From the NCBI GenBank assembly GCA_036846145.1, contig DAIUCM010000002.1:15345-79344 (forward strand): a DNA stretch of 64,000 nt, in the 5' to 3' direction. This stretch comes from Bacteroidota bacterium. Its GTDB lineage: Bacteria > Bacteroidota > Bacteroidia > CAILMK01. The translations under genes and the position numbers were made by a program. The notes beneath the pieces were generated by a model. It was not told where the DNA came from, made no database searches, and saw nothing but the letters and a program-made list of their open reading frames with translations. Below are positions 25,343 through 56,560 of the stretch, piece after piece; position 1 is the first letter of the stretch; every line of letters starts with the position of its first letter.

Positions 25343-25530
25343 GCTGTTAATTATTCTTTATACTGAAGCATTTTTAGCCGTCTGCATATATGGATGCGCC
25401 GGAAAATGCTTCGTGATTTATTATTCTAAATATTCCCCTTCCAGGTAAAAATTATGGTTAACAAAAGGGTTTTTCAAAGGTATAAAAAATAGTTTCTATT
25501 CTTAGAGCATTGCCTTAAGCTGTAAAAGTC

Positions 25531-29698: not shown

Positions 29699-29704
29699 TG
29701 AAAA

Positions 29705-30529: not shown

Positions 30530-30615
30530 ATTTGGCTATTACGATGTTGTATAACAGTTAGTTACATTTCCATATATGCTTTGGCCAAAAAATGCCTTGA
30601 GTGGCGCAGAAAAAT

Positions 30616-36714: not shown

Positions 36715-36760
36715 TTAAAAATTAAGAATTAAAAATTAAAAATGCCGTGATATGTTTTGT

Positions 36761-36905
36761 GTAGAGACGACATGCCTGGCGTCTCGTTGCCGCGAAATTG
36801 CGGTTTTCATATATGGTTTCGCTGAAAAATGCCTTCATTCAGTGACCAGTAATCAGTGACCAGTGCATCGTCGCGGCGTAGAGACGCCAGGCATGTCGTC
36901 TCTAC
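36761..36905. mobile_element. MITE-like family-2 element, copy 2 (TIRs GTAGAGACGACATGCCTGGCGTCTC / GAGACGCCAGGCATGTCGTCTCTAC)
   Basis: 25/25 perfect TIRs at 36761-36785 and 36881-36905; internal catatatgg..aaaaatgcc motif and CAGTGACCAGTAATCAGTGACCAG direct repeat; sits between dacB start and Fic-like gene stop. Confidence 0.75.
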
Positions 36906-38774: not shown

Positions 38775-38924
38775 GGGAAGTTATGATTTATGGCTTATGA
38801 GTTATGAATTGGTTGGCGCGTATTTACGCGTGGCCGATATGAAAGCATTTTCTGAGGGTGTGATATATGGATTCCTAAAATATCTACACAACGTGAGTTC
38901 GAAAATTATCTTGTTGATAATCTT

Positions 38925-39080
38925 TTAATTATAATAGCAAGTCCATATTGCGTAAAGCCGAAAAATGATTTTGCAAATTAATGGGATTAAAATTTATTTC
39001 ACTAAATAAAGTTAGATGTGCCATATTTTGAAAATATGGCACATCTGCGCTCTGAACCTAATATATTTACCAACCATTAA
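38925..39080. repeat. ~160-bp duplicated element copy 1, containing perfect 33-bp palindrome (38994-39026); candidate sRNA or MITE
   Basis: ~85% identical to 55975-56152; begins with palindromic-motif half-site (gtccatattgcg..gccgaaaaatgatttt); palindrome AGATGTGCCATATTTTGAAAATATGGCACATCT identical in both copies; ends with ccaacc..gttgg hairpin + T7 in this copy. Confidence 0.6.
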
Positions 39081-39117
39081 TGCATAAAATCTTCTGTTGG
39101 ATTTTTTTCGAGTCACG

Positions 39118-39277
39118 TTATTCAGCAAATAATTTTTTAGCCATTCTTGCAGCTAAGTTATCAATATCATTACGCCTTAATAATTGGTTCAACCAATTTT
39201 CAGGTATTGAATTATAACCATATAGTAAGCCTGCAAGCCCGCCGGTTACCGCTGCAGTTGTGTCTGTATCTGATATA
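39118..39277 (-). pseudogene. 3'-terminal remnant of an ADP-ribosylglycohydrolase gene
   Basis: Minus-strand frame translates ISDTDTTAAVTGGLAGLLYGYNSIPENWLNQLLRRNDIDNLAARMAKKLFAE*, the conserved C-terminus of the ADP-ribosylglycohydrolase family (DTDT.AA..G.L.G...G...IP..W); upstream homology stops at a T8 run and an in-frame stop; no room for the N-terminal 250 aa. Confidence 0.5.
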
Positions 39278-39381
39278 AAAAAAAGAATATTTTATCTCAT
39301 AATTATTGAATTCCAGGTTGCCATCTAACTCTAAAGGATAAATCTTGACCAGGTAAATATTATATGCCGTATTTATTTTCT

Positions 39382-39780
39382 TTATGAATGGTATAGTTTT
39401 TTTAAGCCAATCTGCACAATTTTATCATACTCGGTTTTGAAAACTATGTTTCCATCCAGGTCTGTTGCTCCGTGTTTCCCGTATTCTTGCACCAAAAACC
39501 TGTTGCGCCCCATAAAAAAGTAAATCTGTTCATATTTTACAGGAAGAATCGGCTTTAAGCTGCTATTGTAAACACCGTATTTTTCTTCTGCAGAAACCAT
39601 GAAAAAATGCTTCCCTTCAGCGTAAACTATTAAATTATTATTGAATGCTATGGAAAATATTTGTTTCGGCTGTGCATCAAGCAATCCTTTTTTATTGTCA
39701 TTATAAACAGTTATAAAATACTGCTCAGCAGAGAATCCGATAAGTGGACGATCATCTATTTTATCATAAGTTGGCGCCAA
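39382..39780 (-). CDS. WG-repeat (KWG-like) containing protein
   Basis: 132 aa; repeated YDKI/YEQI...G...V...GK.G..D..GN.V motifs. Confidence 0.4.
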   Translation of the reverse strand: MAPTYDKIDDRPLIGFSAEQYFITVYNDNKKGLLDAQPKQIFSIAFNNNLIVYAEGKHFFMVSAEEKYGVYNSSLKPILPVKYEQIYFFMGRNRFLVQEYGKHGATDLDGNIVFKTEYDKIVQIGLKKLYHS

Positions 39781-40072
39781 TGCTAATTGTCCTAATTGAT
39801 TTATAAACCCCCACTTGCCTTCGGCTTATACAGCAAATAGAAAGGGCTTGGCGCTAAAAAAATTAAAAGTGAAAATAATTAGCAAGGCATAATTCACTTA
39901 AATAATGCTTTTATTTAAATTAAAAAACCATTCGAAAGTATTTTTTCGGCCTGGTATATTTGGGTAATTTTTTGCGCTGTATTTGAACAATATATGTTGT
40001 AAGAACATCTAATAAAGGTTAATATATCACAAACAAACCTTTAAAAATTCCGACTAACAAAAACAAACCAAT

Positions 40073-40411
40073 ATGAGAGTTAAAAACCAGAACGAAGTTG
40101 AGATCAGGTACAGCGAATCATCTCACTACAATAGTGCTTATATTTCAGGCACTTTCGGCGGCTTAAACCCAAGCGGTATGCTGGAAATTGATTTCTTTAC
40201 CGACAGGCTGCACAGGCCGGAGTCAACCACGCATAAAATTGAAGATGGGAAAATAGCAACCGAAATGGACGGTGAAATGGAAAGGCACCTGCATGTAAGA
40301 AAGGTAGAGTTTACGGCTATGATGAACCTTGAAGTTGCGAAAGCTTTCCATCAATGGCTTACACAAAAAATTACAGACCTGGAAAGCTTTAACAGCGCGC
40401 AAAGCAGGTAA
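40073..40411 (+). CDS. hypothetical protein
   Basis: 112-aa ORF followed by strong terminator. Confidence 0.4.
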   Translation: MRVKNQNEVEIRYSESSHYNSAYISGTFGGLNPSGMLEIDFFTDRLHRPESTTHKIEDGKIATEMDGEMERHLHVRKVEFTAMMNLEVAKAFHQWLTQKITDLESFNSAQSR

Positions 40412-40425
40412 AAAAATATAACACG

Positions 40426-40484
40426 CCGGCCGGTAAAAATTGAAGTGCATTTAAATTTCGATTTTTACCGGCCGGTTTATTTTA
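40426..40484 (+). terminator. rho-independent terminator (long stem)
   Basis: gccggccggtaaaaat...atttttaccggccgg-tttatttt. Confidence 0.7.
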
Positions 40485-40530
40485 CCGGTAACATACCAAG
40501 GCATTTTTTAGTACGTTTATATATGTAAAT

Positions 40531-41322
40531 GTGCGCTTTATGGTTTTTGCGAAATACTTGTTTCTATACGGTTTGCTTATTTTTCTGCCTGTTGTAACAT
40601 CGTTGCTGGTTATTAGGCCGGCGGAAAAACAAGCATTACAGGCTGCTTCTACGGAACAGGATCCTCAACCCAATAATGGCGCAAAAAGTCTTCATGAAAA
40701 ATATACTGAATTAAAAGATTCGCTTGCCGATGAGCGCAATAAACTGGCCGGTTTGTATAAAAACGCGGAAACTGAGGCGCAGAAAAACCAGCTGCTGGAA
40801 AAAGCCAGGCATTTATTTTTACAAACTTTGCAGCAGCGGATAATACCGGCATGGTACGGCACGCCCTGGGAGTTTTATGGCGCCAGCGAAATACCAAACG
40901 AGGGAAGCATTGCCTGCGGTTATTTTGTAACTACTGTTTTGCGTGATGCCGGGGTAAAGTTAGATCGTGTACACCTGGCGGAAATAGAATCGGAAACCAT
41001 GATACGCACCGTTATCGGAACGCCATATATTACCCGCTACAAAAATAAAGATATAGACGCTTTTATCAACAGCATTAAAAAGGCGGGCGACGCTTTTTAT
41101 ATTGTTGGCTTAGACTACCATACCGGTTTCCTGCTTTGCGATAAAGGAAAAACCTATTTCATACATGCTTATATACCAAGTGTTATAAAAGCAGACGCTT
41201 ACAGAAGCTATTTCTTAAGAATATCAGCATACAGAGTAACAGGTAAAATCAGCCACGACCCGGTTTTTGTGCGTAAATGGCTGCTGGGTGAAAGCTTTCC
41301 CAACCTTACCGTAAAGAAATAA
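40531..41322 (+). CDS. hypothetical secreted/membrane-anchored protein, possible transglutaminase-like Cys-peptidase core
   Basis: 263 aa; N-terminal hydrophobic helix; GSIACGYFVTTVLRDAGV resembles the G.C..F.....LR..GIP segment of transglutaminase-like folds; GTG start at 40531 or ATG at 40540; palindromic motif centre 6-15 nt upstream. Confidence 0.4.
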   Translation: MRFMVFAKYLFLYGLLIFLPVVTSLLVIRPAEKQALQAASTEQDPQPNNGAKSLHEKYTELKDSLADERNKLAGLYKNAETEAQKNQLLEKARHLFLQTLQQRIIPAWYGTPWEFYGASEIPNEGSIACGYFVTTVLRDAGVKLDRVHLAEIESETMIRTVIGTPYITRYKNKDIDAFINSIKKAGDAFYIVGLDYHTGFLLCDKGKTYFIHAYIPSVIKADAYRSYFLRISAYRVTGKISHDPVFVRKWLLGESFPNLTVKK

Positions 41323-41655
41323 TACATATATGGGCACTAATAAAAACTCAATCTCTGCGTTGTGCTATCCAATTTAAAATCATCACTTACAAAGTAAACT
41401 CCGGTTTTAAATTTTCTGCGCGCCTTGATCTAAAGATTTTTAGAGGTGCCCATATATGTATATGCCGGAAAATGCTTTGGCCGGGCAATGAAAACTGCAC
41501 TTAGCAGTAATTACTTTTACCAATATAGAATGAAAAACGCATAAATAATACTGGTTTGTGAGCCATGAAACCAGGTTGTAATACTTCGAAGCTCCGTTGC
41601 CTGTAGCTCACAGCACAATTTTCAAATGCGCACAATTCATGCTATATTGATATTA

Positions 41656-41943
41656 TTAAAAAGTTACGCTGGTAATACAGCAAACGGGTATGATGGCGCC
41701 GCCCTTCAGCGCAATATCGGCATCGGAAGCGTGCCAAACCGTAGTTTCCACACAGTTTTTTCCCTCTTTTGCGGCGAACTCTATTTTTACTTTTGTATGG
41801 TAAGCATTGCCTAAAATCATGGCTCGGTAAAGGTCTGCACGGCGTTTACGGATGGCTTCCTCGCTTCGTAAAACTTCGCTCCGGTTGAAGTGTAGCTTAC
41901 CAATGTCTTCTTTTGCAATTAACTTTTCATTGATCAATTCCAT
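41656..41943 (-). CDS. hypothetical protein
   Basis: 95-aa ORF; no recognised motif. Confidence 0.3.
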   Translation of the reverse strand: MELINEKLIAKEDIGKLHFNRSEVLRSEEAIRKRRADLYRAMILGNAYHTKVKIEFAAKEGKNCVETTVWHASDADIALKGGAIIPVCCITSVTF

Positions 41944-42295
41944 AGCAGTAAATTAAAGATTATCAAAAATATAGGCTACGGTATAAAAAGATTCTAACAA
42001 AAGCTGTAAACGGGCACAATTGTAATGTTTAACCGGAAATATAATTAAATACTTACCCCATTACTGCCGAAAATCCCATTACCGCCAAATTCAGCGAAAC
42101 CATCATACCAAAACCTATAATAAAAACTGTAAGTAAATATACGTAAAATACAGCAGTTTAGTGCAAACAGCCCAAAAAAATTGATTTTTGCAGTTATTTT
42201 ACAAGCTCCTGCCATATAACTAACCCTGACGACTGCTTTAGGTTCATATAACTAAGCGTTTGAAGGCCTGGCAGGCAGAGAACAGGCAGCGCTAT

Positions 42296-43972
42296 TTATT
42301 TGCAGTAAACTATGAATTTTACCGGTTGGCTGATTGTATCTTGCCCAGAAACAGAAAGTAAGTAAGCACCTTGTTTCAAACTCTTAATATCCAAGGTTTC
42401 ATATATTAAGCCGATTTTATCGCCTGATATAAGTTGCTGACTCACAACCTGCCCAAGCATATTTACAATATTTATTTTCACCTGGCCAGGCGAAGTTTTG
42501 ATGAACTGAACAGTTAACAGGTTACTGGCAGGATTTGGATAAAGCTGCAGTAGATCCAGAGCTATTGTTTCAGTTTCGCAAAGCTTATTAATTTCGGCCA
42601 TTGCCTTATTAACGTTTAATATTCCGCCGGCAGCAACTGTATCTGTAAAGGCTTCGCCTACTTCTGCATTCCGTAAAAGCATCTCTTTTATATAAAGCGC
42701 GTTTTGTTGCGGGTAATCTGCCGCCATTTTAATAAATTTTGTACACGGATGCGCGTACAGCAACGCAATACTGCCTGCAACATGCGGCGCTGCGAAAGAT
42801 GTACCTGAAACCGTGCCATAGCCACCCGGCTGCGTAGTAAATATACTTACACCGGGCGCAGCAATATCTACAGTGTTTTTTCCAAATGCTGTTACAGGAT
42901 CTCTTCTGCCCTGCTGGTTAGCGCTTGTTACTGTAATTAAATACGGGCTTGTACAACTGCTTGGTATATCGTGCGCTGAATCTAAATTAATACCGGCGTT
43001 GGCAGTGGCTGCTACATTTAATACCCCAAGGCTGCCAAGCGCGTTATACATCTCGCACCAGATGGGAAAATCATCGGCTTTGCCAAAATCCACCCCAAAA
43101 GATGTGTTGGTGCATACAACATAAGCGCCTGTTTTTTTGCGGTTATATTGCTCGCGCAGGGTATAAATATAGCTGTAAGCACTTACTACCTCGGCTTCAG
43201 TTTCTGAAGAGCCCGCTACAGCAAGTGTTTTTACATGCCAGTTTACACCACTAATGCCGGTATTATTGTTTCCGCGCGCAGCGGCAATCCCGGCCACTTG
43301 TGTACCATGAAACCTGTTAGGGATAGAATCGGAGCGGTTAAATACATTCCAGCCGTAGTAATCATCTGCATAGCCGTTTTCATCATCATCAATGCCGTTA
43401 CCGGGAATTTCATAATGGTTCCGCCAGTAATCAATATCTTCATGCCGCATATCGAAACCATTATCAATAACAGCAATTACAATTGTATCTCCAGCCGGTG
43501 TTGTACCGCCGGTTGTGGTTTGCCATGCTTCGGTTATCTGAATGTCCGTTCGGCTTGTACCAGGCTGGTTGTGAGCATTATTTAAATTCCATTGCCGCGG
43601 AAAAAGCGAATCGGAAGGTATTTTTTGGCGGAGGCTTATATGGTGGTTATGCTGCGCAAGAAGTATGTTTTCGTTTTGCCTTAACTGCTGTAGCAGCTGT
43701 ATTGAAGTATTTTCCGCAGTATCTATATATAGCAGCCAGATATTAAGCTGAGCGCTCAGTTGCTTATTTTCCTTTATGTGAGAATGTTTTGCTCTTGCGC
43801 CAAAGTTAATTGAGTTTACATCGGCTCCATCTTTAAGCTTTACGATAAACTGGCCGCCAATTACATTGCTTTTATTAGCCTGTGCAGCGGTTTCGGAATG
43901 GAAAAATACCAGCAGGAAAGCGGCAAACCAAATACTCACCGCCATAATATATCTTATAAAAATATGCTTCAA
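42296..43972 (-). CDS. S8 (subtilisin-like) serine peptidase with T9SS type-A C-terminal sorting domain
   Basis: 558 aa; D/H/S triad contexts (VIDNGFD, HGTQVAGIAAARGNN, GTSFAAPHVAGSIALL); C-terminus LYPNPASNLLTV......INIVNMLGQVV.......GAYLLSV. Confidence 0.85.
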   Translation of the reverse strand: MKHIFIRYIMAVSIWFAAFLLVFFHSETAAQANKSNVIGGQFIVKLKDGADVNSINFGARAKHSHIKENKQLSAQLNIWLLYIDTAENTSIQLLQQLRQNENILLAQHNHHISLRQKIPSDSLFPRQWNLNNAHNQPGTSRTDIQITEAWQTTTGGTTPAGDTIVIAVIDNGFDMRHEDIDYWRNHYEIPGNGIDDDENGYADDYYGWNVFNRSDSIPNRFHGTQVAGIAAARGNNNTGISGVNWHVKTLAVAGSSETEAEVVSAYSYIYTLREQYNRKKTGAYVVCTNTSFGVDFGKADDFPIWCEMYNALGSLGVLNVAATANAGINLDSAHDIPSSCTSPYLITVTSANQQGRRDPVTAFGKNTVDIAAPGVSIFTTQPGGYGTVSGTSFAAPHVAGSIALLYAHPCTKFIKMAADYPQQNALYIKEMLLRNAEVGEAFTDTVAAGGILNVNKAMAEINKLCETETIALDLLQLYPNPASNLLTVQFIKTSPGQVKINIVNMLGQVVSQQLISGDKIGLIYETLDIKSLKQGAYLLSVSGQDTISQPVKFIVYCK

Positions 43973-43982
43973 CGCCTGATGT

Positions 43983-44456
43983 TTATTCCTGCTTCTCGGG
44001 CTGGCCTTTTTCCCAGCTAAGTAAAGAGAAAGTTATGGGAAATTTGATCAGCATTCTTATTGATTCTCCTTTATGCGAAGCCGGAATCCACTTCGGCATT
44101 TCCTTGATCATCCGCGCGGCTTCCTCGCCCAAACCGGCTCCCGGATCTTCTAAAATCTTTACTTCTGTAATACTGCCATCTTTATCTATAATGGCTTGTA
44201 CATAAACCTTACCTTCAACCTTATCTTGCAGCGCTTTCGCCGGATATTTCATGTTTTCACGAACATAGGCCTGGAAATTTCCGGGAAACTGAGGAATTTT
44301 ATCAACCACTGCGAATTCATCGCTATTGGCATTGCTTTGCGAAAGCACTTTTGCTGAACCGGGCAATAAAAACAATACTAGCAGAAATAACCTGTAAATA
44401 AACTGTTGCTTCTGTTTCATAAATCTTATTTTAAATAATTCGGCTTGTCGGGTCAA
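43983..44456 (-). CDS. secreted TonB C-terminal-domain protein, paralog 1
   Basis: 157 aa; signal peptide; PKFPGGxxAxxxYLxxNxxYPxxAxxxxIxGTVxVxFVIxKDGxIxxVxIVRSxxxxLDxEAxRVVxxMPxWxPGxxNGKPVxV... consensus shared with 44644 and 45126 ORFs (DPG.GLGEEAAR..KEMP.W.PA). Confidence 0.6.
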   Translation of the reverse strand: MTRQAELFKIRFMKQKQQFIYRLFLLVLFLLPGSAKVLSQSNANSDEFAVVDKIPQFPGNFQAYVRENMKYPAKALQDKVEGKVYVQAIIDKDGSITEVKILEDPGAGLGEEAARMIKEMPKWIPASHKGESIRMLIKFPITFSLLSWEKGQPEKQE

Positions 44457-44643
44457 AAAACTTGAAGGCTAATAAAATGACTTTCAATTTAAGGAACATA
44501 AAATAGCTAATATACTGCAATTTAGCTAAAATACGCGGATATTTATGGTTACAGAAGCATTTTTTGGCACATGGATATATGCAGAAACATGCTTTGGCCA
44601 GCTTTATAAACGAAAGCTATTATCTGATAATAGATTGAAAGCC

Positions 44644-45069
44644 TTACTTCCTCTTCTTTTTCTTACTCTTGCCTGAATCACCAATCATAAATTTTACAGG
44701 TAAGGTCAGCTGATAATTTACCGTTTTGCCATTTTGTGATGCTGGTTCCCAATCGGGCATCTGCCAGATTACGCGCGCTGCCTCCTCACCCAATCCGCCA
44801 CCCGGATCTTCCATAATCTCAACATCTTCTACTTTTCCTGTTTTACCAATTAATACTTTAAGCTTTACGGTGCCTGAAATATCATTTTCAAGAGCTTCTA
44901 TAGGATACCTGATATTTTGTGCCAGGTATCTACTATAATTGCCTTTGAATGATGCAGGAATATCTACAAACTCATAAATCTTTTTGCTGCTATCTGCCTG
45001 GGCAAAAAGCTGCAATTGCACGAAAAAGAATAAAATAACCAGGAAAAAACTATTTTTTGTAATGCGCAC
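44644..45069 (-). CDS. secreted TonB C-terminal-domain protein, paralog 2
   Basis: 141 aa; same architecture; MEDPGGGLGEEAARVIWQMPDWEPASQNGKTV. Confidence 0.6.
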   Translation of the reverse strand: MRITKNSFFLVILFFFVQLQLFAQADSSKKIYEFVDIPASFKGNYSRYLAQNIRYPIEALENDISGTVKLKVLIGKTGKVEDVEIMEDPGGGLGEEAARVIWQMPDWEPASQNGKTVNYQLTLPVKFMIGDSGKSKKKKRK

Positions 45070-45125
45070 AGGCTTATGGTGTGTTTAGAAATAGAAATGA
45101 TATTTTGCGACAGCGTAAATTGATT

Positions 45126-45572
45126 TTACTTTTCTTTATCTGTTTCTGACGGTAATAGATTTTGCAGTACAAATTTTACAGGTACCATTAGTTTTACACG
45201 CACAGGCCTGCCGTTGATTTTGCCTGGCCTCCAGTTGGGCATTTCCCTAACTACTTTCGCTGCTTCTTCGCCTAATCCACCACCCGGATTTCTAACAATC
45301 TGTACACTTTCAACTTCACCGGCTTTACCTATAATCAGCGACAAATAAACAGTGCCTTGTATATTGTTTTTCATTGCTTCGGCAGGATAGCTTACATGCT
45401 CGGATAAGTATGCCACATAATCGCTTTCAAAAAAGGGCATTTCATCGGCAAATTCATGAACAGGATCATTATCCTTCGGCGCGGCTTTTATATTCTGCGC
45501 AGAAATACTATGCCCTGTTAAAACAAAAATGACGAATAATGCCGGCAGCAATTGGTTTTTATAAAGATCCAT
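45126..45572 (-). CDS. secreted TonB C-terminal-domain protein, paralog 3
   Basis: 148 aa; VRNPGGGLGEEAAKVVREMPNWRPGKINGRPVRV. Confidence 0.6.
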   Translation of the reverse strand: MDLYKNQLLPALFVIFVLTGHSISAQNIKAAPKDNDPVHEFADEMPFFESDYVAYLSEHVSYPAEAMKNNIQGTVYLSLIIGKAGEVESVQIVRNPGGGLGEEAAKVVREMPNWRPGKINGRPVRVKLMVPVKFVLQNLLPSETDKEK

Positions 45573-45674
45573 ATTTTAATATACTTAAGCTTTTAAAAAT
45601 ATGCAATTTAACGATAAAGCACCGGAATAATTTCTTGCCGAAGCATTTTTCCGCATTTATATATATGGAATATT

Positions 45675-46859
45675 TTAAATACCCAGCTCTACCTGCAAAG
45701 CGAAGTACCAGTTTTTTTCACCGCCAATAATATTCTGGTAACCGATATTTTCCTGTACTTTAACCCTGTGGCCTTTTAAATATTGCGTACAGCCAAGCAC
45801 ATAATGCGTTACAGGCTTATCTGTAGATTTTCTGTATTCATACGGATGCATGGCTGTGAACCTTCCGGCAAGCTCAACATTGTTTTTAAACAGGTAGCTG
45901 GCCTGTATATTTTCGCCATAGCCCACATAAATATTACGATTTTGAATACCGCTTACTGTAACAGGCTTCGCAGCGTTCCTTATAATATATTCACCGCTTA
46001 AAGCGAAGCCACGGTATTTTAGTACGGCATCGCCAATAATAGTTTCCATATCGCGCTTTTCAAAAAGATCTCGGCCAATCTGCCCGCCGCTTCTTACTGC
46101 ATTATCGTTGAAACTATAAACTGCGCCAACCGATAATTTTGGTGTTTTTTCACGCATTAAATCTCCTTCAAAATAATCGCCCTTGTTTTCGAAGTTGCCG
46201 AAAGGCAAAACCTCAACACGCCCTGTATAAGCTAAGCCATTGTCTGAAGAAACTGAATTACGTCCCTCACCGCTTGTTAGCGCCGCTTTAAAATTGTAGT
46301 TGAAGTCGCCGAAATTATTGTTATAAGCGGCCTGCAAACCAAAATCACGATCGATATTTAAAGTAGCATTTAATATAGACCGGTCCACAAACTGCTGATC
46401 ACCGGAGGAAATTACACGCTGCCGGTTGCCGGGAAGTTTTCCCTGCCCGAATGAAAGCGTAAAATTTGGCGTAAATTTATAGGAGATCATAGCATCGCGC
46501 ACAACATTTGGGCTGGTGTTGTATTTCGAATTATCAGGCCCGCTCCAGTCCATATCGCCGCGGGAGAATGATAACTGCAAACTATAAGTAAGTTTCGGGT
46601 TCCATACAAAACCTTCGAACCTTAAGCGGCAGCGCCGCACACGCGCTTCAACCTCGCTGGCTGAGAGATCTGTATTACTTACGGTCTGCATAATAGCCCT
46701 GTTCTGCATACGAAACCTTATGTTCATGCTGAAACTGCTGTCGGCTGCGGTAATTCCCAATCCATTCTTATAACTAAAAAATGGCGTGTTGGCCTGCTGG
46801 GCATTACAAACAACATTTATAAAAAACCATAACAGGCAAACTAAACAACTGTATTTCAT
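45675..46859 (-). CDS. OprO/OprP-like (phosphate-selective) porin-family outer-membrane protein
   Basis: 394 aa; signal peptide; beta-barrel; first gene of the porin-TonB_C x3-S8 peptidase same-strand cluster, adjacent to pst locus. Confidence 0.5.
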   Translation of the reverse strand: MKYSCLVCLLWFFINVVCNAQQANTPFFSYKNGLGITAADSSFSMNIRFRMQNRAIMQTVSNTDLSASEVEARVRRCRLRFEGFVWNPKLTYSLQLSFSRGDMDWSGPDNSKYNTSPNVVRDAMISYKFTPNFTLSFGQGKLPGNRQRVISSGDQQFVDRSILNATLNIDRDFGLQAAYNNNFGDFNYNFKAALTSGEGRNSVSSDNGLAYTGRVEVLPFGNFENKGDYFEGDLMREKTPKLSVGAVYSFNDNAVRSGGQIGRDLFEKRDMETIIGDAVLKYRGFALSGEYIIRNAAKPVTVSGIQNRNIYVGYGENIQASYLFKNNVELAGRFTAMHPYEYRKSTDKPVTHYVLGCTQYLKGHRVKVQENIGYQNIIGGEKNWYFALQVELGI

Positions 46860-47068
46860 GCGAATAAATCGTTACTATTTTCTACAAAGAAGAATGCTTT
46901 ATTTTTAACTAACTGAAGCATTTTTAGCCATACATATATATGGTACACCTGTAAAAATGATTCATCATACAGCAAATGTATTAACGATTTCTTAACACAC
47001 GCTTAACATTTGGCCAATTTTGCGTGCGGAACTTTGCAGAGAATTAATAATTTTATAAAACCTGCTTA

Positions 47069-48307: not shown

Positions 48308-48385
48308 GAATAATGAATGATTGAATGAATGTAAGAATGAAAGAATATGCCGCGATGCGAAGCAAACCGAAATTCAATTACGAAT

Positions 48386-48551
48386 CAATGTCGTTTAATT
48401 AAGGATGGAATAAATTCCATCCCTACAATATTTGATCGTCCATACTGGACTTGATTAACGCTCCGAACCAAGTTCCATGGGAACGATAAAATATTGTAGC
48501 AACGGATTTTAATCCGTTGATGGCAAGAATTTTCTTACCTAAACGACATTG
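48386..48551. repeat. structured element with nested inverted repeats (outer 12-bp IR CAATGTCGTTTA/TAAACGACATTG; inner IR CTACAATATTT/AAATATTGTAG; hairpins GGATGGAATAAATTCCATCC and CAACGGATTTTAATCCGTTG); candidate ncRNA or MITE
   Basis: Four independent stem pairs within 166 bp, flanked on both sides by direct copies of AATTACGAAT + GCCGCGATGCGAAGCAA blocks related to MITE family 2 ends. Confidence 0.5.
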
Positions 48552-49048
48552 AATTACGAATGCCGCGATGCGAAGCAACCTTACAACCTTACAACTATAA
48601 AACTTCACAACTTCATTTACATATAAACATCTCGGAAAAAATACTTTGTGCCTTTGTGCCTTCGTGGCAAAAAAACCTGAAGATGAAGCAAGCTTACAAA
48701 CTTCAGCTTGAATTGCATATAAATGAAGCCTAAAAGTGCTTTCAAAACGAATCACACAATCAGCGAAATCTTAAAAATCATCATTAATCAGCGGTTAAAA
48801 CCGCGATGCGAAGTAATTTTTCAATTTTCCAATATTACAATTTTCCAATTCATCCATATATTACCCTCAGAAAAAATGCTTCATGTTTGGAGTGTTAAAA
48901 ACACAAAGTGTTAACAATTTCTTAACATTGGAGCTTCCACAACATTGCTTTGCTGCGTAACTTTGTATTGAAATTCCATATTTGCAACAAGGCTTCAATA
49001 AAACCATAACACACTTCAAATCAACGGAATATAATTATTAAAACACGA

Positions 49049-50071
49049 ATGAAAAAAGCCATTTATTTTTTACTGGCAGCAGGAATCAGTTTAAGCGCCT
49101 GCAACAATAATAATCAAGGCGATAATGCAGGAAAGACAGAACAACAGGGAGCGATACAGATTGACGGCTCCAGCACTGTTTATCCTATTACTGAAGCAAT
49201 TGCAGAAGAATACCGTACAGAAAGTCCGGGTATAAAAATTACAGTTGGCGTTTCGGGTACAGGCGGCGGCTTTAAAAAATTCACACGCGGCGATATTGAT
49301 ATTAACGATGCTTCCCGCTCAATTTCAGCTGGTGAGCTTGAGCAGGCAACACAAAATAAAATTGATTTTATAGAATTACCCGTTGCTTATGATGGTCTCG
49401 CTATTGTGGTAAACCCTGAGAATAACTGGGCGAAAGATATTACCGTTGCCGAGCTGAAAAAGCTTTGGGAGCCGGAAGCGCAGAATAAAATAAAACGCTG
49501 GAACCAGATTCGCCCGGAATGGCCTAACGAGGAAATTCACTTGTTTGGCGCGGGAGTAGAATCAGGCACGTATGATTATTTTACAGAGGCAATTGTAGGC
49601 AAAGCGCACAGCAGCCGTGGCGATTATACTGCCAGCGAGGATGACAATGTATTGGTACAGGGAATTTCTACCGATAAAAATGCGCTTGGCTTTTTTGGTG
49701 TAGCTTATTACAACGAAAATAAGGCAAAACTGAAGCTATTACCAGTTGACGACGAGAACGATGCGAACGGAAAAGGCGCAATTTCACCAACCGATGAAAC
49801 CATACAAAACGGAACTTACCAGCCGCTGAGCCGCCCGATTTTTATTTATGTTAACGCTAAAGCCGCAGAACGGGCAGAAGTAAGCGATTTTATAAACTTT
49901 TACCTTGAAACTGTAGGCCAGATTGCAAAAGAAGTTGGTTACGTTGCCTTACCAAATGATGTTTACGAACTGGTAAAAAAACGCTTTAACAATAAGAAAA
50001 CCGGCTCTGCATTTCTAAATAAATCGCATGTAAATGTGAACCTGAAAGAAATGCTTAGCGATAGCAAGTAA
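49049..50071 (+). CDS. pstS: phosphate ABC transporter substrate-binding protein PstS
   Basis: 340 aa; lipoprotein signal (LAAGISLSAC); DGSSTVYPITEA...SGTGGGFKKF PBP motifs. Confidence 0.9.
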   Translation: MKKAIYFLLAAGISLSACNNNNQGDNAGKTEQQGAIQIDGSSTVYPITEAIAEEYRTESPGIKITVGVSGTGGGFKKFTRGDIDINDASRSISAGELEQATQNKIDFIELPVAYDGLAIVVNPENNWAKDITVAELKKLWEPEAQNKIKRWNQIRPEWPNEEIHLFGAGVESGTYDYFTEAIVGKAHSSRGDYTASEDDNVLVQGISTDKNALGFFGVAYYNENKAKLKLLPVDDENDANGKGAISPTDETIQNGTYQPLSRPIFIYVNAKAAERAEVSDFINFYLETVGQIAKEVGYVALPNDVYELVKKRFNNKKTGSAFLNKSHVNVNLKEMLSDSK

Positions 50072-50091
50072 TTCTTTTCGCCAAATACTTT

Positions 50092-50973
50092 TTGGATATG
50101 AATACAAAGGAAAAAATAATTGAAAGGCTGCTGTTTTTATGCAGCCTTCTTACTGTTTTAACAACACTGGGAATTATACTGGTGCTGCTTGTGCAAAGTT
50201 TTTCCTTTTTCAGCGAGGTTTCCCTTTGGGATTTTTTAACCGATACCGAATGGACGCCATTGTTCGCCGATAAGCATTTCGGTATATTGCCTTTGTTATC
50301 GGGCACATTTCTTACTACCTTAATTGCCATTACAGTTGCGCTGCCTATAGGACTTATTATAGCCGTTTACCTCAGCCAGTACGCTCATCCACGTACACGT
50401 AATATAATCAAGCCTTTCCTTGAGCTCCTGGCAGCTGTACCAACAGTGGTTTATGGTTATTTCGCTTTAGTTTTTGTTACACCTTTGCTGCAAACATTCA
50501 TCCCGGGATTATCAGGCTTCAACGCACTTTCTCCTGGCCTTGTTATGGGCATTATGATTGTTCCGTTAATTTCATCGCTCAGCGAAGATGCCATGTCATC
50601 TGTTCCTAAAGCACTTCGCGAAGGATCTTATGCCATGGGCGCAACACGTTTACAAACAGCATTAAAAGTAATTTTTCCATCAGCTGCATCAGGTATCGGC
50701 GTATCAATTATACTGGCAATTTCCAGGGCTATTGGCGAAACCATGATTGTTGCCATTGCTGCCGGCCAGCAGCCTCGATTAACCCTGGACCCAACTGTGC
50801 CGATTGAAACCGTAACAACCTATATTGTACAGGTAAGCCTTGGCGATGTTCCACATAATTCATTGGAATACAGGACAATATTCGCAGTAGGCATGGCCCT
50901 GTTCGTTATTACTTTTATTTTAAACAACATCAGCTACTACGTTAAAAAACGTTTCCACCAAAGCTATGAGTAA
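50092..50973 (+). CDS. pstC: phosphate ABC transporter permease PstC
   Basis: 293 aa, 6 TM, EAA-like loop (SRAIGETMIVAIAAG). Confidence 0.9.
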   Translation: MDMNTKEKIIERLLFLCSLLTVLTTLGIILVLLVQSFSFFSEVSLWDFLTDTEWTPLFADKHFGILPLLSGTFLTTLIAITVALPIGLIIAVYLSQYAHPRTRNIIKPFLELLAAVPTVVYGYFALVFVTPLLQTFIPGLSGFNALSPGLVMGIMIVPLISSLSEDAMSSVPKALREGSYAMGATRLQTALKVIFPSAASGIGVSIILAISRAIGETMIVAIAAGQQPRLTLDPTVPIETVTTYIVQVSLGDVPHNSLEYRTIFAVGMALFVITFILNNISYYVKKRFHQSYE

Positions 50974-51823
50974 ATCATTCGTACACGAGGTAAAAGACAA
51001 GATCTTCCGTATAGTAGGTATAATTTCTACTGTATTTGCGCTGCTTGTATTGGTTGTGTTGCTGATAGATGTAGCGACAGATGGCGGCGCTAGGCTCAGC
51101 TGGGATTTTCTTACAAAACTGCCTTCCAGGTTTCCGCACAAAGCAGGTATTTTAACCGCTTGGGTGGGTACAATATGGATAATGGTTATGACTGCTATTT
51201 TCGCCTGCCCGATTGGTATTGCAGCCGGAATTTACTTACAGGAATATGGCAAGAAAAATCGCTGGACATCATTCATCGAAGTAAATATTGCTAACCTGGC
51301 CGGCGTGCCATCAATTATTTATGGTCTTTTAGGCCTTGAGCTATTTGTAAGGGCGCTAAGTTTGGGTGAAAGCATTTTAACGGGTGGTTTAACTTTATCA
51401 TTACTTATCCTGCCAATTATAATTGTTTCCACAAGAGAAGCCATAAAAGCAGTACCTTATACTTTGCGCGAAGCATCTTACGCTATGGGCGCTAGCAAAT
51501 GGCAAACCATATGGCACCAGGTTTTACCTGCGGCAAGCGGTGGCATTTTAACCGGCATTATCCTTTCGCTTTCGCGCGCCATTGGAGAAACCGCGCCGCT
51601 GATTGTAATTGGTGCATTAACTTATGTGCCTTTTGTGCCGAGCTCGCCTATGGATTCCTTTACAGTTTTACCAATACAGATATTTAACTGGGTTTCCCGT
51701 CCTCAGCAAGGCTTCGTAATAAACGCGGCAGCAGGTATTATTGTATTACTTATATTAACTTTGTTAATGAATGGCTTCGCAATTTACCTGCGCCAGCGCT
51801 GGCAGCGTAAGGTGAAATGGTAA
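50966..51823 (+). CDS. pstA: phosphate ABC transporter permease PstA
   Basis: 285 aa, 6 TM, LSRAIGETAPLIVIGAL; 8-nt overlap with pstC. Confidence 0.9.
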   Translation: MSKSFVHEVKDKIFRIVGIISTVFALLVLVVLLIDVATDGGARLSWDFLTKLPSRFPHKAGILTAWVGTIWIMVMTAIFACPIGIAAGIYLQEYGKKNRWTSFIEVNIANLAGVPSIIYGLLGLELFVRALSLGESILTGGLTLSLLILPIIIVSTREAIKAVPYTLREASYAMGASKWQTIWHQVLPAASGGILTGIILSLSRAIGETAPLIVIGALTYVPFVPSSPMDSFTVLPIQIFNWVSRPQQGFVINAAAGIIVLLILTLLMNGFAIYLRQRWQRKVKW

Positions 51824-51826
51824 TTT

Positions 51827-51867
51827 CAGTGATCAGTGATCAATTAACAGTGATCAGTGATCAATTG
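51827..51867. repeat. tandem direct repeat 2 x CAGTGATCAGTGATCAATT(A/G) in the pstA-pstB gap
   Basis: cagtgatcagtgatcaattaa-cagtgatcagtgatcaattga; related CAGTGACCAGTAATCAGTGACCAG occurs inside MITE copy 2 (36841-36866). Confidence 0.6.
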
Positions 51868-52115
51868 AATATGAACATGTATAATCTCGGTTGCCGGGAT
51901 ACTGAAAGTGCGAAACCCAAAAGCATAAAAGTTTGCATAGCGTTTTTAGAAAATAATATATAGAAGAAAAATTAAGAGTAGCCATTAATGGGCGAAAAAA
52001 ACAGCCTGGCCTAAAGGCCAGGAAATAACAAAGCATTTTTACTTGCTTCCATATATGGAAACCACGGAAAATGCTTTACTTGATAATTGATAATTGATAA
52101 TTGAACATTGGGAAA

Positions 52116-52868
52116 ATGTATAAATTAGAAGCGGCAGATGTAAATTTTTATTACGGGCAGGTACACGCGCTGAAGAATATAAACATTGGTATAGAAGAAA
52201 ATACGGTAACGGCATTTATCGGCCCTTCCGGTTGCGGAAAATCTACTTTCCTGCGCCTTTTTAACCGTATGAACGACCTTATTGATGGCGCACGCGTGGA
52301 AGGAAACGTATTGATTGACGGGCAGGATATTTACTCCAAACGCACAAATGTTTATGAACTGCGCAAAAAAGTAGGTATGGTTTTCCAGAAGCCAAATCCT
52401 TTTCCTAAATCCATCTTTGAGAATGTAGCTTACGGGCTTCGTGTTACAGGCGTAAAAGACAAGAATTTTATTGAAGAGCGCGTAGAAACATCACTAAAGC
52501 AGGCAACGCTTTGGGAAGAAGTGAAAGATAAGCTGAAAAAATCGGCATTCTCATTATCGGGCGGCCAGCAGCAGCGTTTATGCATTGCGCGCACCTTAGC
52601 TATAGAACCATCTGTGCTTTTAATGGATGAACCTACTTCTGCATTAGATCCAATATCTAACAGTAAAATTGAAGAGCTTATTTTCTCGCTGAAACAGGAA
52701 TATACCATTGTAATTGTAACGCACAACATGCAGCAGGCTGCGCGTGTTAGTGATAAAACAGCGTTCTTTTATATTGGTGAGCTTGTGGAATATGATAATA
52801 CGCAAAACATCTTCACCAAGCCAAAAGAAGTACGTACTCAGAATTATATAACCGGAAGGTTTGGGTAA
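52116..52868 (+). CDS. pstB: phosphate ABC transporter ATP-binding protein PstB
   Basis: Walker [10 protein letters not shown], signature LSGGQQQRL, Walker [12 protein letters not shown]; ORF-track TTG start 52101 lies inside a TTGATAA x3 tandem repeat, ATG 52116 preferred. Confidence 0.9.
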
Positions 52869-53161
52869 ACAATGTAATAATGAATAAATACATTAATGAT
52901 ATAATAGGAATGTGTAGATGTGGAAATATGTAAATGTGCAAATTAGCTGAACAGGACAATCGGAGCACCACTCCTTCCCTGTTCCAGGGAAAGTGCCCAA
53001 AAGGCGGAAGGGCAAATTTCATATATAATAACACTGAAAAATGCTTTCAATCAATCTTCATATTTTCACATCTGCAAATAAAAATTTATTCATTCATTCT
53101 TACATTCATTCAATCTTACATTAAAAATAAACGTAACTTAGCAAAAACGTAACAGTAACAA

Positions 53162-53839
53162 ATGACGCACCTCGAAGTAGAATTAGGAAAGATTCGCGAA
53201 AGCGCGCTGGAAATGATGAACATGGTGAAAAACCAGCTTTGCAAAGGCAAAGAAGCCCTCATCACATCCAACAAGGAACTCGCATTGGAAGTAATGCACA
53301 ACGAGAAACGCGTTAACGGTTACGAATTACTGATTGATAATGATTGTGAGAACGTAATTGCCCTTTTCAGCCCGGTAGCAATTGATTTACGTTTTGTTTT
53401 GGCCACTTTAAAAATAAACTATCATTTAGAACGTATTGGCGACAACGCCGATGGTATTGCCAGAAACGTACTCGACCTGCAGGCGCAGTGGAATGCAGAG
53501 CTACTTGATTCGCTGGAAATTGTAAAAGCTTTTGATACGGCTGTGGAAATGCTGGATTTTATAATCGATTCATACGAGCATGAAGATTCCTCGCTGGCGC
53601 GTAAGGTGTTTGAAATGGACAAAACTATTGACGATATAACCGACCGGGCAATTGTTAAAATAGCAGAATACCTGAAACAAAATAATCAAAACCTCGAAAA
53701 AGATTTATATTTGCTGCTGATACATCGTAAACTGGAGCGTGTTGGCGACCTGATGAAGAATATGGCGGAAGAGATCATCTTCTACGTAGAAGCTAAGGTG
53801 CTTAAACATAAACCGAAAAAGGAAAAAATTGGCAAATAA
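53162..53839 (+). CDS. phoU: phosphate signalling complex protein PhoU
   Basis: 225 aa; two PhoU repeats with ERIGD motifs (LERIGDNADGIARN, LERVGDLMKNMAEEI). Confidence 0.9.
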   Translation: MTHLEVELGKIRESALEMMNMVKNQLCKGKEALITSNKELALEVMHNEKRVNGYELLIDNDCENVIALFSPVAIDLRFVLATLKINYHLERIGDNADGIARNVLDLQAQWNAELLDSLEIVKAFDTAVEMLDFIIDSYEHEDSSLARKVFEMDKTIDDITDRAIVKIAEYLKQNNQNLEKDLYLLLIHRKLERVGDLMKNMAEEIIFYVEAKVLKHKPKKEKIGK

Positions 53840-53849
53840 TATTTAAAGC

Positions 53850-54827
53850 ATGCAATATCAGGGTAAAGATTTAGCTACATTTCCGAAACAGATACAATAC
53901 GCAATTGATAATTATATACCGCATGGCCTCAAAGTGAGCGCTTTCGATAATGTTATCATTTGCGGTTTAGGCGGCAGCGGCATTGCCGGCCGTTTGTTCA
54001 AGGTAAATACATTCAACAGCTTCCCTTTACCGATCGAGATTATATCTGACTATAATTTACCTGCTTATGTAGGCCCGCGCACTTTAGCCATACAATGCTC
54101 GTACTCAGGCAATACCGAAGAAACCTTAAGCATGTATGCGCATGCAAAGGCCAAAGGCGCAGCCATGATATGCATTGCCACAGGCGGCAAGCTACAGGAT
54201 GTTGCTTTTAATGATCATGTAATGTTTTACAAGGCGGAAGCCGGCTACCAGCCACGCATGGCGCTGGGTTATCCGCTGGCCTACCTTTTCCTTATTTTCG
54301 ATGAGCTGACAGGCACAAACAAGCGCGCGGAGTTAGAAGCAACCATAGAAACGCTTAGTAATACAGATCTGCATATAACCGAAGCACGAAAAATGCTTGA
54401 GCAGATAAAGCCGCATTTCCCTAAAAAAATAGTTGTTATTACCGATTATTTCAGCAGCGCAGCGGGTTTACGCTTTTGCCAGCAGATACAGGAAAACGCT
54501 AAAGCTGAGGCATTCCTTAACGAACTGCCTGAAAGCAACCACAATGTTATTGAATCGTACTACGGCCGGTTAGATAGTATTTTCTACTGCCTCAATACGC
54601 ATAAAAATCCGCGCACCGATCTGCGTTTCAGTTTTATAAAAGACCTTCTGCGTAAAAACGGCGATGTGGTTTTTGATATTGATATTGATGCCGACTCCAT
54701 GACTGACCTGCTGCAGAAAATATATGTAATGGATTGGCTGTCACTGCTGCTGGCCGAATATAAAGGCGCTGTATCATCGGATATTCGTAATATAAATGCG
54801 CTGAAGGATTATCTTTCTCGCCAGTAA
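53850..54827 (+). CDS. SIS-domain protein of the bifunctional phosphoglucose/phosphomannose isomerase family
   Basis: 325 aa; CGLGGSGIAGRL and CSYSGNTEET SIS motifs. Confidence 0.5.
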   Translation: MQYQGKDLATFPKQIQYAIDNYIPHGLKVSAFDNVIICGLGGSGIAGRLFKVNTFNSFPLPIEIISDYNLPAYVGPRTLAIQCSYSGNTEETLSMYAHAKAKGAAMICIATGGKLQDVAFNDHVMFYKAEAGYQPRMALGYPLAYLFLIFDELTGTNKRAELEATIETLSNTDLHITEARKMLEQIKPHFPKKIVVITDYFSSAAGLRFCQQIQENAKAEAFLNELPESNHNVIESYYGRLDSIFYCLNTHKNPRTDLRFSFIKDLLRKNGDVVFDIDIDADSMTDLLQKIYVMDWLSLLLAEYKGAVSSDIRNINALKDYLSRQ

Positions 54828-54899
54828 TTCATTTTTCCATATAAGTACCTGGCAAAAAATGCTTTAAATGGCTTAAATTAGCTTGCTAAAAGTATTTAT

Positions 54900-55556
54900 A
54901 TGTCGGCAGGCCAGTTTCTTACATTCCGCAAATTTTCAAATGAAGATGTTGCAGGTGATCTTATTGCTTTTTTGGATGAAGAAAATATCCCTTACGAGGT
55001 AGAAGAAAATAATATCAGGGCGGATATTACTTCATTAACTGTGGCCAGCCCATTTACAAAAGAGATCAGTATAAAATTAAGGCAAGAAGATTTTACCCGC
55101 GCGAATACACTTTGGGAAGAAGCCATAAACAAGCAGCTGAACGATGTTGATAAAGATTATTACCTCTACAGCTTTACCGATGAAGAACTTACCGATGTAA
55201 TTACCCGGCCCGATGAATGGAGTACTTTCGATTTTTTACTTGCGCAGAAGATCTTCCGGAGCCGCGGCGCTGATATTAAGCCCGAAGTTATAAACGAGCT
55301 AAAGCAAAACAGGCTGCAGGTGCTTGCCCGGCCAGAAGAAAGCCAGGCAGGCTGGATTGTTGCCGGGTATCTGCTTGCATTGGCTGGCGGCTTACTTGCC
55401 ATTTTTATTGGCTGGCATCTATCAACTTTTAAAAGAACCCTGCCCAACGGCGAACAGGTTTTTGGCTACACCGAAACCGACAGAAAGCATGGCAAAATTA
55501 TATTGTTGCTTGGCAGCATTAGCTTTATCATATGGCTTTGGCTGCGTTATAAATAA
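54900..55556 (+). CDS. membrane-anchored protein with N-terminal DUF2007-like (putative signal-transducing) domain
   Basis: 218 aa; soluble N-domain, two C-terminal TM helices. Confidence 0.35.
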   Translation: MSAGQFLTFRKFSNEDVAGDLIAFLDEENIPYEVEENNIRADITSLTVASPFTKEISIKLRQEDFTRANTLWEEAINKQLNDVDKDYYLYSFTDEELTDVITRPDEWSTFDFLLAQKIFRSRGADIKPEVINELKQNRLQVLARPEESQAGWIVAGYLLALAGGLLAIFIGWHLSTFKRTLPNGEQVFGYTETDRKHGKIILLLGSISFIIWLWLRYK

Positions 55557-55974
55557 GGAAGCGAAAAAAGTATGTATGAATGTCCGCCAGCGACACTGCT
55601 TAGTCGAATTCTAAACAATATTAGCCTGAACTCATACATTCAACGTGAACCTGGGAATTAATAATACAGTATACTGCTAATCGTAGCATTTTTGCTATGA
55701 ATATTTTAGCTGGTAGTTTACAAACTACAAGCTAAAATCTGCGAAGTTTAAAAACTTCGCAGAGCATACCCAGGTCTTGGATTTGTGCGTCAAATTTTCA
55801 ATTGCAATTAATATATCCCGATACCTCGAGACATTTTTATACTTAAGCTTATATGGAAATTAGGATTTATACTAATACTTTTTCGCTATCCGGGAATTGG
55901 GCACAGGGCCCTTAAAGTCATGTACCGGAGCCTGTATTTTGATAAGGTGAGCTTGAGATTTATTTATCTGACTA

Positions 55975-56152
55975 TAATTTAATTATAACGAAAGTCCATA
56001 TAGCGTTAAGCCGAAAAATGCTTTTTCCAAATTAATAGGATTAAAGTTTATTTCTCCGAATAAAGTTAGATGTGCCATATTTTGAAAATATGGCACATCT
56101 GCGCTCTGAATCTAATATACTTACCAACTATTAATACATAAAACCCTCAGTT
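55975..56152. repeat. ~160-bp duplicated element copy 2 with identical 33-bp palindrome (56067-56099)
   Basis: Aligns to 38925-39080; starts with gtccatatagcg..gccgaaaaatgcttttt (palindromic-motif half-site); embedded in 1-kb ORF-free AT-rich region upstream of the hybrid kinase. Confidence 0.6.
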
Positions 56153-56560
56153 GGAATTCCCGGGTTCAGGCAATGATAAATACAGTATAACATGTCATGT
56201 AATAAGTATTGTGATGAATTCAGTTCAAATCAGGCGCACTGCTGAAACCATTGAAAGATACTGATTTACAGCAATCTGATAACATATTTTATTTGCACGC
56301 AATACATAATACTTTTGCCTCGAAACTTATAAATAATTACCTTAGCCGCCGCAACTGAATCAGCATTGTAAACAGCATTAATTTTAATTAGAATTTATAC
56401 AAGATTAGCATATTTATTACATTTGCGTTATGCAGAGATTATTTTAATGTTAAATTAATAGAATTAAGTTTAACTTGCATAAAATAAAATGTTTATTTAG
56501 CATTTCACCAAATGGGCTCTTTAAATAACTGGCTGTCCTTTTATTTAACAAACCGAATAA

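Follow-up and report, generated by a model that had tools for sequence, protein, structure and literature searches.

Two non-coding segments on one contig of an uncultured Bacteroidota bacterium (lineage CAILMK01; 91-kb contig DAIUCM010000002.1, of which a stretch of 64 kb, hereafter the window, was analyzed) share a long palindrome, which raises the question of whether they represent a pair of small RNA (sRNA) genes, as a sequence-only reading had proposed, or two copies of a repeat. We identified a non-coding unit of ~181 bp which is present in two copies in the window and which folds into an extended stem-loop that is intact in both copies. Of the sRNA gene layout proposed earlier, the discrete duplicated non-coding unit and the constrained hairpin were recovered, and the promoter and the terminator were not. 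The element is a structured intergenic repeat and not a demonstrated sRNA gene. Our leading interpretation, which we hold tentatively, is that of a low-copy hairpin repeat which is probably transcribed passively and which acts, if at all, at transcript ends.

The extent of the unit was defined by BLASTN and global alignment, which gave 88.5% identity over 182 columns (E 1.6e-61):

38924..39104, no strand assigned: copy 1 of the repeat unit, 88.5% identical to copy 2
55978..56158, no strand assigned: copy 2 of the repeat unit, as aligned to copy 1

The boundaries read earlier (38925-39080 and 55975-56152, at ~85% identity) were essentially right, with the unit extending ~20 nt further to the right. 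The two copies differ by 19 substitutions and 2 indels, all of which are located outside an invariant core of 52 bp. Divergence is 7.8% in the hairpin region versus 15-21% in the outer parts of the unit, and the conserved sequence is asymmetric, comprising 48 nt at the left end and ~20 nt at the right end. Homology between the copies stops at about 39101-39104. Beyond the unit, the likeness of the flanks is not significant (left P about 0.03-0.07, right P about 0.5-0.9), and the borders of the unit are therefore sharp. No third copy was found in the window, either by BLASTN or with a covariance model run with filters off. The unit contains no conserved open reading frame (ORF). A small ORF or type I toxin was considered and rejected, the 14-codon ORF found in copy 1 being disrupted by a frameshift in copy 2.

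The unit holds a 33-nt palindrome, AGATGTGCCATATTTTGAAAATATGGCACATCT, which occurs exactly twice in the window, with zero occurrences expected from shuffled sequences. It consists of two 16-nt arms flanking one unpaired central G (AGATGTGCCATATTTT-G-AAAATATGGCACATCT), so that the reverse strand differs at the centre. The two copies are the only perfect palindromes with arms of at least 11 nt in the 64 kb. The 100% identity reported earlier for this palindrome was found again; its position had been given as 38994-39026 in copy 1, which is wrong by 20 nt, and was off by 1 nt in copy 2. Together with 9 nt on the left (AATAAAGTT) and 10 nt on the right (GCGCTCTGAA) the palindrome makes up the invariant core, and it forms the apical helix (H3) of a hairpin which further contains the helices H1 and H2:

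39014..39046, no strand assigned: H3 apex palindrome of copy 1, an exact match, found as inverted repeat I1 with 100% complementarity
56068..56100, no strand assigned: H3 apex palindrome in copy 2, with the sequence found in copy 1
39005..39056 (equal to 56059-56110), no strand assigned: invariant 52-bp core, zero differences between the copies
38978..38984 (copy 2: 56032-56038), no strand assigned: H1 5' arm, TTAATGG, pairs with 39074-39080
39074..39080 (copy 2: 56128-56134), no strand assigned: H1 3' arm, CCATTAA, pairs with 38978-38984
38990..38998 (copy 2: 56044-56052), no strand assigned: H2 5' arm, AAAT.TATT with one bulge, pairs with 39060-39068
39060..39068 (copy 2: 56114-56122), no strand assigned: H2 3' arm, pairs with 38990-38998

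The hairpin spans 103 nt in total (38978-39080 and 56032-56134) and is composed of H1 (7 bp), H2 (8 bp) and H3 (16 bp), with an internal loop of 14/12 nt between H2 and H3. The same H1/H2/H3 minimum-free-energy fold was obtained for both copies and both strands, with z-scores between -4.2 and -5.2 in three of the four cases. All pairs are of the Watson-Crick type except one U-G. The + strand folds slightly better and gains a U-G pair (39013/39047) which would be C-A on the minus strand. All pairs (31/31) are intact in copy 2 and none is broken. Two of them have changed on both sides: the H1 pair 38983/39075 reads G-C in copy 1 but A-T in copy 2, and the H2 pair 38992/39066 shows the opposite exchange, A-T in copy 1 against G-C in copy 2. 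An outer extension of 4 bp, formed in copy 1 by 38972-38975 and 39081-39084, does not hold in copy 2. The pairing was controlled by sliding the 3' partners and by simulation; a shuffle control is uninformative with two sequences. When the 3' partners were shifted by 1-3 columns, just 32-48% of the cells paired. In the simulation, 19 substitutions were placed at random across the unit, and the probability of no broken pair was 0.004, that of at least two compensatory pairs 0.008, and that of both jointly about 1e-4. The probability that the 52-bp core stayed untouched was about 0.001. The strong hairpin noted earlier is thus supported, with one compensatory change in each of its outer helices. 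This is suggestive of a hairpin that is under constraint or is maintained by a hairpin-templated process, two sequences not being proof, and the 103-nt extended stem-loop is on our best reading the functional core of the unit.

Logan contigs of the same organism (SRR3961739) break in the copy-2 palindrome, with contig L003 ending at 56088 and contig L015 starting at 56081. Such a break is to be expected from the k-mers that the 52-bp core has in common with its reverse complement, and it carries no copy-number information.

For an sRNA gene, the hairpin would need a promoter, a role that had been assigned to a half-site of a pervasive motif present in both copies. This motif, ttTcCATATATac-N8-(a/g)AAAAATGCTTt, consists of two boxes with a fixed spacing and is found 61 times per 64 kb. 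As had been stated, an instance is present in each copy of the unit; both are on the + strand and lie 19 nt inside the left border instead of at the border:

38943..38971, + strand: two-box motif instance in copy 1, CCATAT-N-GAAAAATGATTT, with its copy-2 equivalent at 55996-56024

Of the intergenic instances, 19 are oriented toward the start of a gene and 15 toward the end of one, and a further 25 are located inside genes (14 sense and 11 antisense). The canonical -7 box of Bacteroidetes, TAnnTTTG (PMC7366714), was used as a control on the same intergenic DNA and was found 17 times toward gene starts versus 3 times toward gene ends. Canonical promoters are in use in this organism, and given these orientations the pervasive motif is not a directional promoter. 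A perfect TAnnTTTG is present in neither copy nor in the intergenic region of copy 1, on either strand. Near copy 2, -7 boxes are found only on its downstream side, at 56310 and 56418, and no -7 box with one mismatch is both conserved in the two copies and placed to transcribe the whole hairpin. The proposed promoter is therefore not supported, as the motif has no orientation preference toward genes and a suitably placed conserved -7 box is lacking.

The proposed terminator, a CCAACC..GTTGG hairpin followed by a run of T residues at the end of copy 1, is located in the right tail of the unit:

39070..39108, + strand: right tail of the unit, with CCAAC at 39070-39074, GTTGG at 39096-39100 and T7 at 39102-39108

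The sequence is present as described, but its role as terminator was not borne out. CCAAC and GTTGG form a 5-bp stem with a 21-nt loop and are found in both copies; the T7 run is confined to copy 1; and a terminator scan called a + strand terminator in neither copy. It is the minus strand of the palindrome with its T-rich tail that scored as terminator-like in both copies, and the + strand did not. The minus-strand tail after H3 reads AACTTTATT(T/C), and in copy 1 it is AACTTTATTT.

An integron attC site was considered as well. In attC sites, the R''/R' core sites (RYYYAAC ... GTTRRRY) are located at opposite ends of the palindrome, and the sites occur in arrays behind gene cassettes. An attC site was rejected, as CCAAC and GTTGG are both on the right side of the palindrome, separated by 21 nt, and the two copies are 17 kb apart.

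The copies are located in different genomic contexts, for which the following neighbours were identified:

38193/38259-38774, + strand: paaD-like gene, left neighbour of copy 1
39120..39281, - strand: ADP-ribosylglycohydrolase C-terminal remnant, from its translation; Pfam PF03747, E 4.8e-08, profile positions 263-286 of 287
54900-55556, + strand: gene for a 218-amino-acid protein, left neighbour of copy 2
56561-60688, + strand: gene for a hybrid histidine kinase of 1375 amino acids, downstream of copy 2

Copy 1 sits between two convergent genes, the paaD-like gene (+) and the ADP-ribosylglycohydrolase remnant (-). The remnant, which had been recognized earlier beside copy 1, is real and is encoded on the minus strand. 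Its PF03747 match corresponds to the last ~53 codons, and 16 nt separate its stop codon (39120-39122) from the right border of copy 1. Copy 2 is located, as described before, in the ORF-free interval 55557-56560 upstream of the hybrid kinase. The copies are separated by 17 kb of DNA that codes for a subtilase, TonB-like proteins, porins, pstSCAB-phoU and a SIS-domain protein, and no recombinase or integrase was found in this region. The possibility that the copies are attL and attR of an integrated element was rejected because of the housekeeping cargo, the lack of an integrase and the similarity extending on both sides of the identical core. Between the 218-amino-acid gene and copy 2 two terminator-like hairpins were observed, at 55738-55763 (-) and 55681-55700 (+). 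The former has no annotated minus-strand gene upstream, which hints that an unannotated minus-strand transcript could run through copy 2.

In favor of a stem-loop intergenic repeat we counted the sharp borders, the unrelated flanks and contexts, the lack of a conserved ORF, the shared fold with its intact pairs, its compensatory changes and its lower divergence, and the presence of other repeat classes and of a RAYT-like gene in this genome. The terminator-like minus strand of the palindrome in both copies, the location of copy 1 between convergent genes and an almost identical hairpin between convergent genes in an unrelated Saprospiraceae genome were counted likewise. The unit would have been copied as a block into unrelated intergenic sites, with the hairpin kept intact. 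Because the unit has no recognizable promoter of its own, it is most likely transcribed passively, within neighbouring transcripts. On the minus strand, H3 and its U-rich tail would then end or stabilize transcripts. For copy 1 the affected transcript would be that of the ADP-ribosylglycohydrolase gene, of which the stop codon is located 74 nt upstream of the hairpin.

Several observations weigh against this interpretation. Two copies are known, both within the 64-kb window. The unit has no terminal inverted repeats, its left end (TTTAATTATAA...) and right end (...CTGTTGGA) not being complementary, and its inverted repeat (H1-H3) is internal, unlike that of miniature inverted-repeat transposable elements (MITEs), the alternative named in the sequence-only reading and still a candidate. 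No direct repeat of at least 3 bp is shared at the borders, and a 2-bp duplication is unjudgeable in these AT-rich flanks, for which no empty site could be aligned in relatives. The window contains a RAYT-like gene, but the hairpins that flank it are GC-rich and unrelated to the element, so that no mobilizing enzyme can be named. Termination right after H3 would leave the 3' arms of H1 and H2 untranscribed, and a role as terminator therefore fails to explain why H1 and H2 are retained. Copy 2 has no recognizable minus-strand gene upstream in a six-frame translation. Finally, the invariant 52-bp core includes unpaired flanks, which suggests a sequence-specific function beyond pairing.

Comparison with known systems places the element among the structured intergenic repeats, of which it is an unclassified member. 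Our best reading is that it would be, by analogy, a low-copy member of the class that includes REPIN, ERIC and Correia-like elements. REPINs are hairpin-forming REP doublets that are mobilized by RAYT transposases. In this mobile DNA, compensatory changes across the hairpin are "common" (PMC3116915). Like a REPIN, the element is a quasi-palindromic intergenic unit of ~100 nt with conserved arms, able to form a long hairpin in single-stranded DNA or RNA. It shows the inverted doublet with a long hairpin and compensatory changes, and a RAYT-like gene (29887-30402) is present in the window. It differs from REPINs in that its hairpin does not flank the RAYT-like gene, whose hairpins are GC-rich whereas the element is AT-rich, and in that it is seen in two copies, has asymmetric conserved ends and has no GTAG-type REP head that could be identified. 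ERIC (IRU) and Correia elements are intergenic imperfect palindromes of ~100-150 bp, DNA elements that are often co-transcribed. These families have terminal inverted repeats, their copies number tens to hundreds in Proteobacteria, and insertion of Correia elements is accompanied by TA duplications. For stem-loop-sequence (SLS) repeat families, a role at the RNA level in stability, processing or termination has been predicted (Cozzuto et al., 2008; PMC2267715). The element is similar to ERIC, Correia and SLS repeats in being an intergenic imperfect palindrome of similar size and differs in its internal inverted repeat and in showing no duplication. The element was also compared to intrinsic terminators. 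As in these, its minus strand has in both copies a hairpin of 15-16 bp followed by a T-rich tail, and copy 1 is located between convergent genes; a near-identical hairpin in a Saprospiraceae metagenome-assembled genome (MAG; L001) fills a convergent gap of 51 bp. In contrast to intrinsic terminators, the stem is unusually long, the apex is AT-rich, the tail is interrupted (UUUAUUU) and the + strand has no U-tract, and a terminator cannot account for the conserved outer helices or for a unit of 180 bp.

The RAYT-like gene itself (29887-30402, - strand) is a single-copy Y1 (IS200-like) transposase gene (PF01797, E 2.9e-28) that is conserved in synteny in a relative (L012, 4117-4575). Its flanks (29700-29886 and 30403-30530) contain short GC-rich hairpins in inverted orientation, CCTGAYGC..GCATCAGG, GAGCC..GGCTC and GGGGCGATGCCCC, a layout that is typical of a RAYT gene with REP/REPIN sequences. 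No BLASTN similarity was detected between these hairpins and the element. Another hairpin, GAGACG-N10-CGTCTC, occurs as inverted doublets ~100 nt apart in the intergenic regions 28067-28190 and 36760-36902 and is also found at 22333. Each doublet, which looks like a REPIN-type doublet, encloses one instance of the pervasive motif.

Among the alternatives, an independent pair of trans-acting sRNA genes on the + strand comes first, although we consider it unlikely. Transcription would start right behind the motif half-site, at about 38975 and 56029, and give an RNA of ~110-135 nt that consists of the extended hairpin and in which the invariant single-stranded GCGCUCUGAA could serve as seed. Intergenic sRNAs of Bacteroides, for example GibS (Ryan et al., 2020), have a start site behind TAnnTTTG and a Rho-independent terminator, typically both (PMC7366714). 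The element is similar to these in its size of ~100-150 nt, its intergenic location and its stem-loops with conserved single-stranded stretches, and differs in having neither a conserved -7 box nor a terminator and no sequence or Rfam relationship. The conserved structure with its two compensatory changes and the invariant core with its unpaired bases would fit an sRNA, and so would the conserved 5' part of the unit (38924-38971), which stops 7 nt before H1. The slightly better fold of the + strand, with its extra U-G pair, and the lack of a + strand termination signal that would interrupt the structure point in the same direction. However, compensatory changes occur in mobile DNA hairpins too (PMC3116915); the pervasive motif, in contrast to TAnnTTTG, is not directional and is found inside genes as well; and no perfect or conserved near-match -7 box is positioned to drive the hairpin. 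The 3' hairpin with its T-run is weak, is missing from copy 2 and is unlike that of validated Bacteroides sRNAs (PMC7366714). An Rfam scan of both copies, which the sequence-only reading had put forward as a check, gave no significant family match: at E <= 10 the matches were at chance level (best E 0.66) with bit scores far under the thresholds. At the gathering threshold, Rfam 15 identified only a cobalamin riboswitch (12227-12452) in the whole window.

The comparison with related genomes also bears on this alternative, as absence of the palindrome from orthologous loci had been named beforehand as a finding that would refute an sRNA gene. This was found in part. In the two closest relatives, PaaD is 88-89% identical and synteny is shared upstream of paaD, but the intergenic regions after paaD (108 and 57 bp) do not contain the element. 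A covariance model built from the two copies did not detect the element in 29 kb fetched from the loci of three relatives. Copy 2 is without a comparator because no close orthologues of the 218-amino-acid protein and of the kinase were found.

A new family of structured regulatory RNA in this uncultured Bacteroidota lineage, which we regard as quite unlikely, would make the invariant apex module a sequence-specific recognition element, e.g., for a protein or a nuclease. The apex would be shared with other Bacteroidota (35/36 nt in Saprospiraceae), and the outer helices would co-vary to present this module. The distribution of the apex was analyzed in GTDB representative genomes and JGI metagenomes, in collections that do not contain the source genome. 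One match was found in GTDB, the hairpin in the Saprospiraceae MAG, of which 35/36 nt are identical, which fills the gap between convergent genes and which has unrelated flanks. The JGI metagenomes gave eight contigs which have the apex alone in common, with unrelated flanks and with outer stems that are different yet complementary. Pattern scans of IMG/VR gave no match, and phage and plasmid collections gave nothing meaningful. The recurrences were located as follows:

Apex recurrences: L001, 1122-1156; L004, 38-70; L006, 31-65; L008, 250-280 and 918-948; L010, 1546-1586; L011, 800-832

Because the pervasive motif is absent there, the loci that share the apex are not close relatives. Most of these recurrences are found, as terminators would be, at the 3' ends of genes. 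By rough estimates, the matches with arms of 11-12 nt are near chance expectation, and the match with 16-nt arms is not. The recurrence may reflect chance, convergence or a small mobile hairpin.

In the unrelated contigs, the apex palindrome TGCCATATTTTNAAAATATGGCA is mostly part of long perfect palindromes with arms of 15-20 nt, and ACATGCC...GGCATGT is common to four of the contigs with a recurrence. The Trout Bog metagenome contig L008 (1-100 and 250-320) contains an (AAGTTTC)n microsatellite at its start, and its right arm is tandemly triplicated beside the palindrome (AAAAAAATATGGCATGTT).

The recurrence of the apex with unrelated flanks in other organisms could also be taken to indicate a site that acts at the DNA level, either by binding a dimeric DNA-binding protein or as a hairpin, cruciform or single-stranded, involved in recombination or replication. 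The outer helices would then be kept by hairpin-templated correction of the quasi-palindrome and not by selection on RNA. Pairs that are Watson-Crick bar one U-G give no strand signal, and copy 2 is located upstream of a regulator gene, both of which are consistent with such a site. We nevertheless consider it distinctly unlikely: no candidate binding protein or recombinase was found nearby, copy 1 is located between convergent gene ends where an operator would have nothing to regulate, a quasi-palindrome of 103 bp far exceeds typical operators, and the location of most recurrences at gene 3' ends is terminator-like.

Very unlikely, in our view, is a relic of a segmental duplication, in which the unit would be the preserved 3' flank and terminator of a once-duplicated gene, with the ADP-ribosylglycohydrolase stub beside copy 1 as sole survivor and a decayed partner gene beside copy 2. 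The closeness of the remnant stop codon to the border of copy 1 and a palindrome that is terminator-like on the strand of the remnant would agree with this. Both copies are, moreover, in AT-rich and poorly conserved regions, synteny with L012 does not go beyond paaD, and no close orthologue of the kinase was found. Against a relic, there is no similarity at the DNA level between 39105-39400 and 56159-56560, six-frame translation revealed no recognizable gene fragment beside copy 2, and the homology stops sharply 16 nt short of the stop codon and does not run on into the coding sequence. A 6S-like regulatory RNA, with H1/H2 as closing stem, the 14/12-nt loop as central bubble and H3 as terminal stem mimicking an open promoter, is extremely improbable, as the overall shape of the fold agrees with it but no 6S or 6S-Flavo model matched even at E <= 10 with permissive filters, and two copies in variable regions that are absent from the orthologous paaD locus of relatives are unexpected for a housekeeping RNA.

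If the element is a genuine RNA, it would be a further family of structured non-coding RNA in a phylum of which the RNA biology is little known beyond Bacteroides and Flavobacterium. A hairpin repeat would be one of at least three repeat classes in the window, together with the pervasive motif of two boxes and the REP-like hairpins beside the RAYT-like gene, and this uncultured lineage would then stand out for an unusual wealth of intergenic repeats. In this genome, neither the pervasive motif nor two compensatory changes suffice to call an sRNA gene.

The pervasive motif is enriched in intergenic regions, with examples at 25366-25411, 52031-52076, 36672-36698, 36808-36834 and 54838-54864, and is sometimes present as an inverted pair with a common CATATATG centre. 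It is also present in close relatives (L012, L013 and L014) at about 0.7-1.2 raw matches per kb, some of which are double-counted. Its occurrence in the orthologous S13/Fic intergenic region is conserved, and 41 kb of unrelated loci do not contain it. The architecture of the motif resembles that of DNA uptake sequences or of a site for a nucleoid protein, by analogy. A literature search with the motif sequence returned primer noise only.

The cobalamin riboswitch is located on the minus strand (94.6 bits). A -7 box, TAACTTTG, overlaps its first bases, and an instance of the pervasive motif is located directly upstream of this box. The riboswitch precedes a run of minus-strand genes, the products of which are a type IX secretion tail protein, an FGE-sulfatase-like protein and a TonB-dependent receptor. 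The window as a whole encodes proteins with type IX secretion tails. Three tandem repeats with a period of 474 bp (2438-3522) were observed within a gene encoding a PKD/CHU_C surface protein (1620-4484, - strand).

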